From Eledone cirrhosa (Eukaryota): a stretch of DNA of 64,000 nucleotides. The notes below the pieces were generated by a model that was not told where the DNA came from, ran no database searches, and saw only the letters and a list, made by a program, of their open reading frames with translations. How positions within the stretch are numbered: position 1 is the first letter of the stretch; every line of letters begins with the position of its first letter. Below, piece after piece: positions 7,941-64,000 of the stretch. Position numbers and translations under genes: made by a program. The stretch lies in the NCBI GenBank assembly GCA_964016885.1, contig CAXHJY010000601.1:1-64000 (forward strand). Reading direction: 5' to 3'.

Positions 7941-7989
<49 letters not shown>

Positions 7990-7993
<4 letters not shown>

Positions 7994-8182
7994 AAAATGT
8001 TTGACCCCAACAGCAGAGCTCAAGCCATTTCGACGGCTATTTCTGAACTCAGAAATAGCCGTCGAAATGGCTTGGGCTCTGTCATCGAGGTCAAACATTT
8101 TCCTATTACCCACTCTACTACCCTAAGTATTGAGTACTCTGGTGCGTTATGGTCCATCTGGTTCCTCACCACTCTTCCTTTG

Positions 8183-40692: not shown

Positions 40693-40758
40693 CAAATATT
40701 TATCATAAGTACAGATTAAACTTTAAGCAAAGAATTGCTTAAACTTTAAACTGTACTT

Positions 40759-40807
<49 letters not shown>

Positions 40808-41008
40808 ATGTATATAGTAGTAATAGTGTATATATATATATATATATTATAAGTACAGTTTAAAGTTTAAGCAATTCTTTGCTTAAAGTTTAATCTGTAC
40901 TTATGATAAATATTTGCTCTACTGGTTTTTATATATACTTTTTATATATATATATGTAATCCTTATGGAGCCCTCTTCAGATTTTAGTCTTCACATTTAT
41001 TATTACTA
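40693..41008. mobile_element. family C element with inverted duplication around a (TA)n/(TG)n tract
   Basis: 40693-40762 is the reverse complement of 40848-40916; the remainder matches 42781-42890, 45790-45935 and 60238-60400. Confidence 0.7.
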
Positions 41009-53090: not shown

Positions 53091-53092
<2 letters not shown>

Positions 53093-53297
53093 GGAACGAG
53101 TAAGACCCCGACGGCTGAGCTCAAGCCGTTTCGACGGCTAATTCTGGACTAAAAATTTTTAGTCCAGAATTAGCCGTCGAAACGGCTTGAGCTCAGCCGT
53201 CGGGGTCTTACTCGTTCCTATTACCCACTCGACTACCCTAAGTATTGAGTACTTTGGTTCGTTATGGTCCACCTTGTTCCTTACCACATTTCCTTCG

Positions 53298-57880: not shown

Positions 57881-58533
57881 TCAAAATCAAAACAAAGGAA
57901 TTCTTACATAACAACCTCAGTTGAGAAGCAGTAGCTATGAGCAAGGATTGCGTGGAGTCGGAGGAGGGCCCATGAATATTTCACACACTGCTTAATAAAA
58001 CCCATTTGATTTTGAAATGAACTCGCATCCCACATTATGTTATAATGCTGTGGCTACATAAAGCACCAAGATGTATCTTAAATCTGAAAACTATTCATTC
58101 CACTGACGTCACTCCCAACTATAATTTAACACACTATATATTTTTCCACTCTTTGTATTACAATAATCTACACTCTAGTTCCATCAAAACGAACAGACAT
58201 TCACACATGTACATGTGTGTGTGCGTGTGTGTAAATATTTGGTTTCTACATTGCGTGTGTACATATATATAAACGGAAAAAATGAAACGAAATTTCATTT
58301 CCCACTCTTAGTACGGCTGTTACATAAATATAAGTATGTATACGTACATACATATATGTATACAGCGTACAGTAGTATGTATATATATATACATACATGC
58401 ACACATATATATATGTACGTATGGATTCACCGAACATTTATTATAATGCTCGGTGTGTTTGTAAACAAACATCCCGTATTAAGCCATAGTGTCTAGCAAC
58501 CATCGTTGCTCGTTTGTTCAACACTGACAAAGG

Positions 58534-58578
58534 AACGCTGTACTAGTTTCAAGCTTATTAGCTATTGTCAGCAACGTT
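58534..58578 (-). ncRNA. hammerhead ribozyme (left-arm copy, core CTGACAA)
   Basis: Mirror of 58812-58856 with a G8-to-A change. Confidence 0.65.
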
Positions 58579-58811
58579 TACCTTCCTGCCGGATGATTGA
58601 ACGTCTGAAAGTATATACTTTCCTTATGGATATTAACGGCTGAGTAGCCCAATTTGCATATCGAGTGGATTAATCAGCCGCGTGCACCGAAAACGATAAA
58701 CGGTGCACCCCGCCGATTAACCCACTCGATATGCAAATTGGGCTACTCAGCCGTTAATATCCACAAGGAAAGTATATACTTTCAGACGTTCAATCATCCG
58801 GCAGGAAGGTA

Positions 58812-58856
58812 AACGTTGCTGACGATAGCTAATAAGCTTGAAACTAGTACAGCGTT
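58812..58856 (+). ncRNA. minimal type I hammerhead ribozyme
   Basis: AACGTTG-CTGACGA-T AGCT AATA AGCT T-GAAA-CTAG-TA-CAGCGTT: 7-bp stem I, palindromic ACTAGT stem III, GUA site. Confidence 0.82.
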
Positions 58857-59088
58857 CCTTTGTCAGTGTTGAACAAATGAGCAACGATGCTTGCTAGACA
58901 CTACGGCTTAATACGGGATGTTTGTTTACAAATACACAGAGCATTATAATAAATGTTCGGTGAATCCATACGTACATTTATATATGTGTGCATGTATGTA
59001 TATATATATACATACTACTGTACGTCTGTATACATATATGTATGTACGTATACATACTTGTATATATATATATATACAATATATTAAT

Positions 59089-59269
59089 TGTCTCTACTTT
59101 AGGCACAAGGCCAGCAGTTAACCAGTGCATTACTGGTACTTTATTTTATCGACCCCGTAAGGATGAAAGGCAAAGTCAACCTCGGCGGGATTTGAACTCA
59201 GATCGTAAAGGGACGTAATTATGCTGGAAAGCATGGCGTCCGACCCTCTACTGATACTGCCAATCCACC
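59089..59269 (-). mobile_element. SINE, full length with 8-bp TSD
   Basis: ATATTAAT at 59081-59088 and 59270-59277; intact A and B boxes. Confidence 0.93.
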
Positions 59270-59329
59270 ATATTAATAAATGGAAACTATATTTATAAAA
59301 CCATAATTATTTTATTATATATATTTCAA

Positions 59330-59513
59330 GGCGGTGAATTGGCAGTATCGGTAGAGGGCTGGACGCCATGCTTTCTAGCACAGTTTCGTCCCTTTACGGT
59401 CTGAGTTCAAATCCCGCCGAGGTTAACTTTGCCTTTCATCCTTACGGGGTCGATAAAATAAAGTACCAGTAATGCACTGGGTAATTGCTGGCCTTGTGCC
59501 AAAAGGAGAAACA
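59330..59513 (+). mobile_element. SINE, full length with about 17-bp TSD
   Basis: ATTATATATATTTCAAG(G) at 59314 and 59514; intact A and B boxes. Confidence 0.95.
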
Positions 59514-59608
59514 ATTATATATATTTCAAGGGCAACCAAGGTAAATTATGGTGCGCTTTCATCAGATAAAATAAATATGTTGAAACCCAACAAATTAAAT
59601 ATAACCTC

Positions 59609-59647
<39 letters not shown>

Positions 59648-59794
59648 GAGTATATGTTGGTTATTTACCGACACCTCAGTATGGAGATTGGAGCACTCGA
59701 CGAAGTGCGCAGGTTGGTTTGGTTACTCCGGATTAATGTAAAATAAAATAGATAAGTCAAATATTTAAAATTTGGCTTCGTTTATTAAAGGTGT

Positions 59795-59849
59795 ACTGCT
59801 ATATATATTTTGGTTACAGCCATCCTTGGCTGTGACCTCTTCAGGCAGT
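59795..59849 (-). ncRNA. hammerhead ribozyme (left-arm copy, GAAA changed to AAAA)
   Basis: Minus strand ACTGC-CTGAAGA-GGTCACAGCCA AGGA TGGCTGTAACC-AAAA-TATATA-TA-GCAGT. Confidence 0.65.
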
Positions 59850-60065
59850 CCGAATTGGTGTGGTAGAGACAGGTACGCATGTTGTTGAGGTGTTTAACTC
59901 CGCCAATCCTCCGATATGCCCACTTCCTGGTCGGTTGTTATTTCTCTGAGGAACAGGAATCATATCAGAGAAATAACAACCCGACCAGGAAGTGGGCATA
60001 TCGGAGTCTTGACGGAGTTAAACACCTCAACAACATGCGTACCTGTCTCTACCACACCAATTCGG

Positions 60066-60120
60066 ACTGCCTGAAGAAGTCACAGCCAAAGATGGCTGTC
60101 ACCGAAATATATATAGCAGT
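60066..60120 (+). ncRNA. type I hammerhead ribozyme
   Basis: ACTGC-CTGAAGA-AGTCACAGCCA AAGA TGGCTGTCACC-GAAA-TATATA-TA-GCAGT: 5-bp stem I, long stem II, AUA site, AATAAA just downstream. Confidence 0.82.
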
Positions 60121-60169
60121 ACACCTTTAATAAACGAAGCCACATTTTAAATATTTGAGTTATCTATTT

Positions 60170-60237
<68 letters not shown>

Positions 60238-60241
<4 letters not shown>

Positions 60242-60395
60242 ATAATAATAAATTTGAAGACTAAAATCCAAAGAGGGCTCGATAAGGATAAATATATATC
60301 AAATATATAAGAACCGTAGAGCAAATATTTATTAAGAAGATCCCGTTAAGGATGAAAGCAGCGATTCTTTGCTTAAACTTTAATCTGTTATTTTA

Positions 60396-62466: not shown

Positions 62467-62520
<54 letters not shown>
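61830..62520. repeat. very long (TA)n-based compound microsatellite
   Basis: About 690 bp; directly abuts the Penelope-like element. Confidence 0.97.
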
Positions 62521-62521
62521 C

Positions 62522-64000
62522 ATATAACTGTACATCAAACCTGTACACTATGGATTGTACTACATACAACAACTTCATTCGGAAAGAATTACATAAAAAA
62601 TATAGAAAAACGAGTGAAGTAACCCTTAAGCACATCAATGATGAGGCATGCGAAATAGTGAAAAATCTCGGAATCGAAGATAGGACAGGACCACTCTTAC
62701 CGGCGGTACCCACCTTCAATCTTAAGGACCACAAGGTAAACTTTGATAATGACCCTAAAATTAGATTAATCTGCCCCTCTAAATCAGATATAGGTAAAAA
62801 TAAGCAAATATATCTTAGATAGAATCATCCCCCAAATTAAGGCTAAGGTTAACATTAAACTCTGGGGGAAGACCCAAGAAGCAATAAGATGGTTTAATAG
62901 CATTAGCAATAAGAATAAATCTAAGTTTATCCAGTTTGATATCGATGAATATTACTCATCGATACCACCTGAAACTTTGAATAGAGCCATTAAGTTTGCT
63001 AAGGATAACTCTGACCTTACAAACGATGAAATTAAGATTATATTAGAAGCTAGGAAAACTATAGTCAAATTTGAGAACAGTTATTGGGTACATAAAGATA
63101 GACCCTCTAACTTTGACATAACAATGGGCTCTAACGATTCGGCGGAAATAACTGATATTGTGGGGTTATTTATCGCCTTTAGACTCCAGGAAAAATTCAG
63201 CAATCTCCACGGCGGAATATACCGCGACGATGTTCTCCTCCTAGCTAAAAACCTTAATAACCAAAAACTAGAAAAACTACGCAAAGATATAAGAAAACTA
63301 CTACTCGAAATAGGACTAACTATAACATATGAATACAACCTTAAAGTAGTTAACTTCCTGGATGTCACACTCAATTTAAACTCTGGTTTGATTAAACCGT
63401 TTCATAAATTGAATGAAAATCTCAAATACGTAAATGTTGGGTCTAACCACCCCATCTCTATAATTAAATCTATCCCTAAAAATATTTCCCTTAGAATCTC
63501 GGGTCTATCTTCTAACATACAAGTATTTAAGGAACACGCCGAGTACTACGATAACGCCCTTAGTAAAGCAGGCTACCTCAACAAAATAGAGTACATAGAT
63601 GGGAACAATCAAAACACCCAAAATAAATCCCACATAGGTAGATATAATAACACAACACCAAACCACACTTACTACCATAGTATGCACACCAGTAAACCAA
63701 CAAACAAAACTAATAGAAAGCGATGCAAAGAGTACTTATGGTATAACCCCGAATACAATAAAACACCAGAGCCAAAGAAATGTAACAACTTTAGCAGAAA
63801 AAGCTTGGACGCTCAGGGATAGCGATCAAAAGTTTACCCTAAAATGGGAGAAATTAGCTAAAACCCAAAGCTTTTCCAGGAGCCAAAATCTCTGCAAATT
63901 GTGTAATCTTGAGATTTATTACATAATCACACACAAGAAGAAACTGCTGAATAACAGAATTGAACGAACATTATTCTGCCGTCACAGAACTAAAACCCTT
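62522..64000 (+). mobile_element. Penelope-like retroelement, Naiad-type, 5'-truncated, runs off the window
   Basis: Motifs LKDHKx[39 protein letters not shown] (63220-63231), FLDVTLNL, SNHP, LWYNP, CKLC...LLN...CRH; inserted at (TA)n. Confidence 0.9.
62532..64000 (+). pseudogene. PLE RT plus partial GIY-YIG endonuclease ORF, disrupted
   Basis: Frame 3 at 62532-62798; +1 slip in the A5 run 62796-62800; frame 1 open 62800-63762; jump to frame 2 at about 63761 (KHQSQRNVTTLAEKAW...CRH) with the N-terminal GIY-YIG half missing. Confidence 0.85.

Follow-up and report, generated by a model that had tools for sequence, protein, structure and literature searches.

Near the right-hand end of the window, by which is meant the whole stretch of 64,000 nucleotides of Eledone cirrhosa DNA that was analysed, lies a single palindrome of 438 bp (59739-60176), which self-BLAST aligns at 92.6% identity over 445 columns including its unpaired centre. 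As the initial annotation had described it, the palindrome carries a tail on one side only and is bounded by (TA)n (Table 1). The locus represents a single insertion into (TA)n of two pLTR copies, arranged head to head, from a high-copy Hydra-clade Penelope-like element (PLE). Positions along the pLTR sense are given here as q coordinates, q220 corresponding to both 60176 and 59739. The short arm starts approximately 16 nt inside the start of the long arm and the two overlap by 1 nt at their junction. Arm-to-arm complementarity is approximately 95%, with private changes in each arm and differences at approximately 5% of sites, and the predicted fold has a z-score of -37, with 0 of 100 shuffles equally stable. 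Each arm has one hammerhead and both face outward.

Table 1. Features of the insertion in the window
Feature	Position	Strand	Basis
Left (TA)n flank, target microsatellite	59611-59643	.	sequence
Long arm: pLTR plus 95-nt tail, from fixed family 5′ end (q-7) to long 3′ end (~q313)	59644-59965	-
95-bp tail, left side only; in full-length copies continues into 5′UTR, with ATG ~56 nt further on	59644-59738	-
Left type-I hammerhead with changes G12>A (59811) and C>A (59815); cleavage predicted after 59800	59795-59849	-
Short arm: pLTR q9 to short 3′ end (~q220)	59965-60176	+
Right type-I hammerhead with change G10.1>A (60078); cleavage predicted after 60115	60066-60120	+
Right (TA)n flank	60177-60238	.	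sequence

Other repeats are present close by. A 749-bp palindrome (58324-59070, 94.8%) with a hammerhead-like motif at 58819 (+), helix III of which is ACTAGT, is probably another two-armed element. Directly left of the 438-bp palindrome is an inverted repeat pair, which we take to be SINE-like, around hammerhead-bearing repeat pieces (59078-59610, core at 59565, -). To the right is a short (TA)n-bounded repeat (60239-60392) in two pieces, found in inverted arrangements at many loci. This repeat also flanks a family copy at another locus (L010), so families nest in each other's TA flanks. Further short palindromes of the window lie at 40693-40916, 53091-53220 and 7989-8106.

Structure of the hammerheads

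The position numbers, the roles of positions and the cut sites are assigned here by the hammerhead numbering as we understand it. The right hammerhead has the stem I strand ACTGC (60066-60070) followed by CTGAAGA (60071-60077), then an A at 10.1 opposite a C at 11.1 (60103), an intact GAAA (60104-60107), a helix III of A-TATATA-T, H17 at 60115 and GCAGT (60116-60120). The left hammerhead, which reads from 59849 to 59795, retains the G10.1-C11.1 pair and has AAAA for GAAA as a result of G12>A, with an extra C-to-A change besides. The initial annotation had thus read both arms correctly, the A-C mismatch at the base of stem II included. The type-I core (CUGANGA, GAAA, UH and helices I-III) is present in the family and each window copy has one core change, while the family majority is intact at the window lesion sites, in agreement with the consensus drawn in that annotation. 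That consensus had been called a canonical hammerhead; its intact core is borne out, but helix III of the consensus monomer has only 2 bp, and Rfam scans gave no hammerhead model at E<=10, an intact family copy included, and only miRNA-like hairpin noise. Helix I differs between hammerhead families yet pairs, pairing being something that the scan itself required.

An intact natural copy was predicted to cofold as a double hammerhead with stem III exchanged, at -42.4 compared with 2 x -17.6 kcal/mol, and in this model the parent hammerhead would act as a dimer held together by an 8-bp (UA)4 helix III. In being type I, with a long helix II, a 5-bp helix I, a palindromic helix III and a predicted dimer, it resembles the PLE hammerheads described in the available text of Cervera and de la Pena (2014, PMC4209133). 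It differs from these in that its predicted fold leaves no additional base unpaired between positions 9 and 10.1 and that helix II has a conserved C-C mismatch.

The family and its parent element

Family members were sampled with four DNA queries on the 3.0-Gb assembly, the best 40 of 862-1867 candidates being scored for each; one of the queries gave 55 matches from the best 40 of 1867. The examined set comprises 154 loci (L-numbers), many of them overlapping, which is a small share of the family. As the loci are best BLAST hits, the sample is biased to young copies, and 30 of 150 loci come from the tail query, which forces one long end.

Family copies extend upstream into a 3′UTR and ORF, and the full-length elements ending in the palindrome sequence that the initial annotation had suggested looking for were found. 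Three RT-encoding copies (L036, L151, L154) have the layout pLTR plus tail, 5′UTR, ORF, 3′UTR and a pLTR with or without tail, and their pLTRs are 88-94% identical to that of the window. Continuation of the tail into the 5′UTR is seen in full-length L036 (3720-4085), L039, L047 and L151, there being nine read-on copies. A sister subfamily has the same layout, a pLTR 80-83% identical, a near-identical hammerhead and open 892-aa ORFs, while all six same-subfamily ORFs examined (6/6) have stops or frameshifts. Sister-subfamily members L039, L040, L046 and L047 are near-identical copies with long uninterrupted ORFs (892 aa in L039, counted from its first Met), and from their sequences this subfamily looks recently active. 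It has G-U at 10.1-11.1, with A-U there in L042.

The parent unit is approximately 4.1-4.3 kb and has a single ORF, which codes for an RT followed by a C-terminal GIY-YIG domain (892 aa with low-complexity inserts in L039/L040, the order being the same in broken same-subfamily copies). Pfam matched the GIY-YIG domain at E=1.4e-4 and 22.5 bits, just below the cut-off of 22.6, and gave no match for either of two RT pieces. The L039 ORF has RWK at 37, DKT at 120 and YRDD, without GxK[FY]; RW[KR] was also found in L153 and L154, and DK[TI]N in L036, L151, L152 and L153. There is a linker CxCX5C (C752-C754-C760), a CxxC (850-853) and a CxH (878-880), and by eye only one Cys and one His lie between the GIY-YIG half-motifs. 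RWK, the lack of GxKF/Y, DKT in place of DKG, CxCX5C, and CxxC and CxH on either side of conserved E and N belong to the definition of the Hydra clade, as does an endonuclease without the CCHH motif, whereas Naiads are described as having GIY-YIG before the RT and no canonical hammerhead, as far as the available part of that source goes (Craig et al., 2021, PMC8557442). With an RT, a C-terminal GIY-YIG and the Hydra motifs, the parent is, on its protein motifs, a Hydra-clade PLE and not a Naiad, Naiad identity being rejected on both the C-terminal endonuclease and the hammerhead. The link to a Naiad drawn in the initial annotation is accordingly dropped, and the 8 kb beyond the window contain no pLTR match. 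The neighbouring element at 62.5 kb, likewise taken for a Naiad, has a C-terminal endonuclease remnant and belongs to a different Hydra-type family. It is a broken element (window 62500-64000 plus L038 1-1000) in which a C-terminal CxxC..CxH remnant survives, is 45-51% identical to the sister-subfamily RT and has in its 3′ region a CTGATGA...GAAA core (L038:935) with no evident helix I.

The window family is like published members of the Hydra clade (Hydra-1_Obim, Hydra-2_Amil) in its RT-then-GIY-YIG order, its RWK, DKT, CxCX5C, CxxC and CxH motifs, its (TA)n target and the hammerhead in its pLTR, and published Hydra proteins have the same motif blocks when compared by eye (the available part of PMC8557442). 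Its unit is longer than the "generally <3 kb" given there for Hydra. Four probe strings of the window family were absent from the PMC8557442 supplement as available and the Hydra-1_Obim hammerhead differs, so the family looks uncatalogued in that supplement. A non-LTR retrozyme was also considered, this being a head-to-tail tandem array of small non-coding hammerhead units (10.64898/2026.07.22.740005, from the available text), and was rejected, since the locus has two inverted single arms and the unit forms the terminal part of an element with an ORF. Public contigs from three runs of one sample contain family alleles and none spans the locus, and no RNA record was listed for the family.

Two further arrangements were seen among the examined loci. 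L031 (G000:C5:94328500-94338400) is a 4.4-kb tandem duplication of a 5′-truncated copy, 98% identical, and in L034 (5411-7276) a family copy lies next to a second, distinct ORF for RT plus GIY-YIG, which contains YVDD.

Ends and pairing of insertions

The sample gave 199 distinct matches, from which 15 small upstream fragments and one copy cut by a locus edge were removed to leave 183 copies. Their 3′ ends fall into two main classes, 95 nt apart and approximately 60 and 155 nt downstream of the hammerhead cut site: 85 are long and 78 short, with nine reading on into the 5′UTR and 11 other. TA runs follow 77 of the 85 long and 70 of the 78 short ends (147/163). A bulged hairpin lies 8-9 nt behind the long end in three of six local folds and a plain hairpin in two more, while behind the short end there is only a simple 5-bp hairpin, in some local folds.

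There were 42 tight head-to-head pairs, of which five were set aside (three with an interrupted arm, two with a read-on arm) to leave 37. Among the matches listed, one long and one short end are combined in 36 of these 37 and in all 13 wider pairs, six of the latter coming from the sister subfamily, which gives 49/50 with none long-long. In the lone short-short pair (L138) the remaining tail follows after approximately 244 bp, its orientation unchanged. By eye, the seeming solo arms L102, L077, L112 and L119 are each accompanied by a very small inverted arm that belongs to the opposite class. Paired arms also resemble one another in sequence. They share derived sites at 49/4019 (0.0122), against 0.0034 +/- 0.0011 (maximum 0.0074) in 1000 re-pairings, and agree at 132 of 151 polymorphic sites, against 55 +/- 5% when re-paired.

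The 5′ ends are concentrated at one place, 50 of 130 in the sampled copies lying at q-12 to 0 and 25 of these at q-7. When the 104 copies holding the pLTR start are taken, 50 stop there and 54 continue into the 3′UTR; in 31/36 pairs at least one arm extends as far as q12 or beyond it in the upstream direction. The position q-7 is likely the transcription start, and an Inr-like TCA lies there. Among 21 cases that are neither templated nor (TA)n, an extra G precedes the fixed 5′ end in 10 (P=0.008 when 0.22 is assumed), or in 8 of 19 (P=0.04) once two cases explained by the partner arm are subtracted, which is a hint only of a cap signature; the idea reportedly comes from work on L1.

In one case (L065, 1394-1650) a short arm abuts a fragment of the 60239-60392 repeat with nothing in between, the whole being TA-bounded. 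It is possibly a chimera of two families and would as such speak for the use of two RNAs in an event.

Origin of the insertion and of the ribozyme lesions

The insertion was probably made by two-site priming on both nicked strands of the (TA)n target, the hammerhead lesions following as independent neutral mutations. The steps are read from genomic footprints. The element's enzyme would nick both strands of the target, and each nicked 3′ end would prime reverse transcription at one of two fixed RNA sites 95 nt apart, so that the long arm with its tail would stem from one target end, primed at the distal site, and the short arm from the other, primed at the proximal site. Both cDNAs would grow in the direction of the 5′ end of the RNA, which is likely the transcription start (q-7), and be joined by microhomology, having read the same RNA or else two RNAs transcribed from a single source copy. 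At the window locus the hammerhead would likely be copied passively. It is the one-long-one-short ends, together with the common variants of paired arms, which argue for two-site priming from one template. Long arms show no clear pile-up at the short site (q218-219; 2/36 in the sample), such as one-RNA twin priming might give. The proposed two-site priming resembles the twin priming of L1, and PLE RTs are not known to have RNase H. Gene conversion between the two arms could also account for the shared variants, and so could fold-back copying.

Fold-back copying, in which a long-arm cDNA would have turned back on itself at its 3′ end and so served as the template of the short arm, is the rival that survives best and is judged unlikely. 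Such self-priming has been proposed for head-to-head pLTRs in the available part of PMC3846280. At the window locus the short arm lies wholly within the long arm and the arms, mismatched at one polymorphic site, have two common variants absent from approximately 105 other sampled copies; the family also has a small palindrome at its fixed 5′ end. It could not, however, yield the 8/36 pairs without arm overlap, the fixed 5′ end is reached more often by the short arm (18) than by the long (12), and the constant short stop site is left unexplained by fold-back itself. Fold-back copying is thus possible at the window locus and not at the non-overlapping pairs.

The initial annotation had tied the (UA)n stem III to the target microsatellite, and hammerhead cleavage might expose a (UA)n 3′ end which anneals to (TA)n and primes insertion. 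Helix III is ATATATAT both in the window family and in several other hammerhead families of the genome, and L128 and L142 each have an arm ending near the motif beside TA. The tie is not upheld by the ends themselves, as among the matches listed only 3/183 3′ ends (at q145-175) and 3/130 5′ ends lie near the cut site. Other hammerheads in the genome use the palindrome ACTAGT instead, and a palindromic loop III was already known as a dimer helix (PMC4209133, available text), making cleavage priming very improbable.

Still less credible is that the two defective hammerheads form a functional pair complementing in trans. The two are damaged at separate positions, and one could draw a hybrid with stem II exchanged whose core is intact. 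The minimum-energy heterodimer of left and right arms nevertheless has the topology predicted for the intact-copy dimer, with helix III swapped, and each core would keep its own lesion; since this dimer core draws CUGAAGA, helix II and GAAA from one molecule, and both lesions lie in that catalytic strand, they would not rescue each other. In read-through RNA of either strand, moreover, CUGAAGA is predicted to be buried in a hairpin of -380 kcal/mol (P(unpaired) <= 0.03). The complementary defects, which the initial annotation had singled out, do not stand out from the family either. When G-U at 10.1-11.1 is scored as intact, 33 of the 123 sampled same-subfamily copies covering the hammerhead have a core change and 90 do not. 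Among 26 pairs with two hammerheads, one arm is hit in nine and both in three, where 1.9 would be expected (P(>=3)=0.29), and in each double-hit pair (L146, L068 and the window) the lesion sites differ. Core sites are not conserved above background, having changed at 51/1671 (3.05%) compared with 657/20808 (3.16%) for other non-polymorphic sites, and in the sampled copies G12>A occurs in 7/130 and G10.1>A in 6/130. The two window lesions are likely independent neutral mutations after insertion, i.e. ordinary decay. CpG decay was considered as the cause of G12>A and set aside as weak, with change at 5.0% of CpG against 3.7% of other G/C sites and, in a smaller set, at 3.0% against 2.8% of all other sites. 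No A-to-G hyper-editing was seen in the variant lists of the window arms.

An assembly fold-back artefact or a MITE-like DNA transposon deserves next to no credence, for although the palindrome is short, lies on a 92-kb contig and is spanned by no contig of the three public runs, its arms have diverged by approximately 5%, each with private changes, and dozens of loci on large contigs repeat this arrangement, with arms that vary in length and with RT ORFs attached.

Descriptions of pLTRs in inverted orientation, of tails on one side only and of hammerhead pairs on opposite strands have already been published (PMC3846280, PMC8557442, PMC4209133, in their available parts), the last of these mentioning dual opposite-strand motifs 100-700 bp apart. 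The window family is like published PLE insertions in its head-to-head 5′-truncated pLTRs and in a one-sided tail continuous with the element start, but the tail is 95 bp compared with 30-40 bp, and where it is optional in the available parts of PMC3846280 and PMC8557442, exactly one is present in 49/50 sampled two-armed insertions. The paired use of two start sites was not found in the non-subscription literature searched. In vitro, the Poseidon_Ac protein nicks and extends both strands, with RT starting at two internal sites which define the tail, and the hammerhead is reported to be dispensable (Frangieh et al., 2024, PMC11167929, available part). The window family agrees with it in its two putative start sites that bound the tail, in the presumed nicking and extension of both strands and in the absence of an accumulation of ends at the hammerhead cut site. 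However, the Poseidon_Ac sites lie inside the ORF rather than before the ATG, and this element of another clade showed no strand difference in start site in bulk, whereas in the window family the sites appear to be used one per end.

How PLEs, the sister group of telomerase, form inverted repeats and one-sided tails is stated to be an open question (PMC8557442, available part). Two-site priming can be taken further, and we tentatively put forward as a serious possibility that Hydra integration is obligately asymmetric, each half of an RT-endonuclease dimer priming on a different nicked (TA)n strand, invariably one at the distal and the other at the proximal RNA site. The palindromes would then be double copies of the capped mRNA 5′ end, the pLTR would run from the transcription start to the RT start site, and the hammerhead would be without a role in the ends. 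The useful part of the analysis is the family statistic, that is, the near-strict one-long-one-short rule, and not the complementary ribozyme defects. Together with same-template arms and a fixed 5′ end, this rule leads to precise expectations that the in vitro system already available could examine, and young copies with open ORFs are present in the genome in the sister subfamily.
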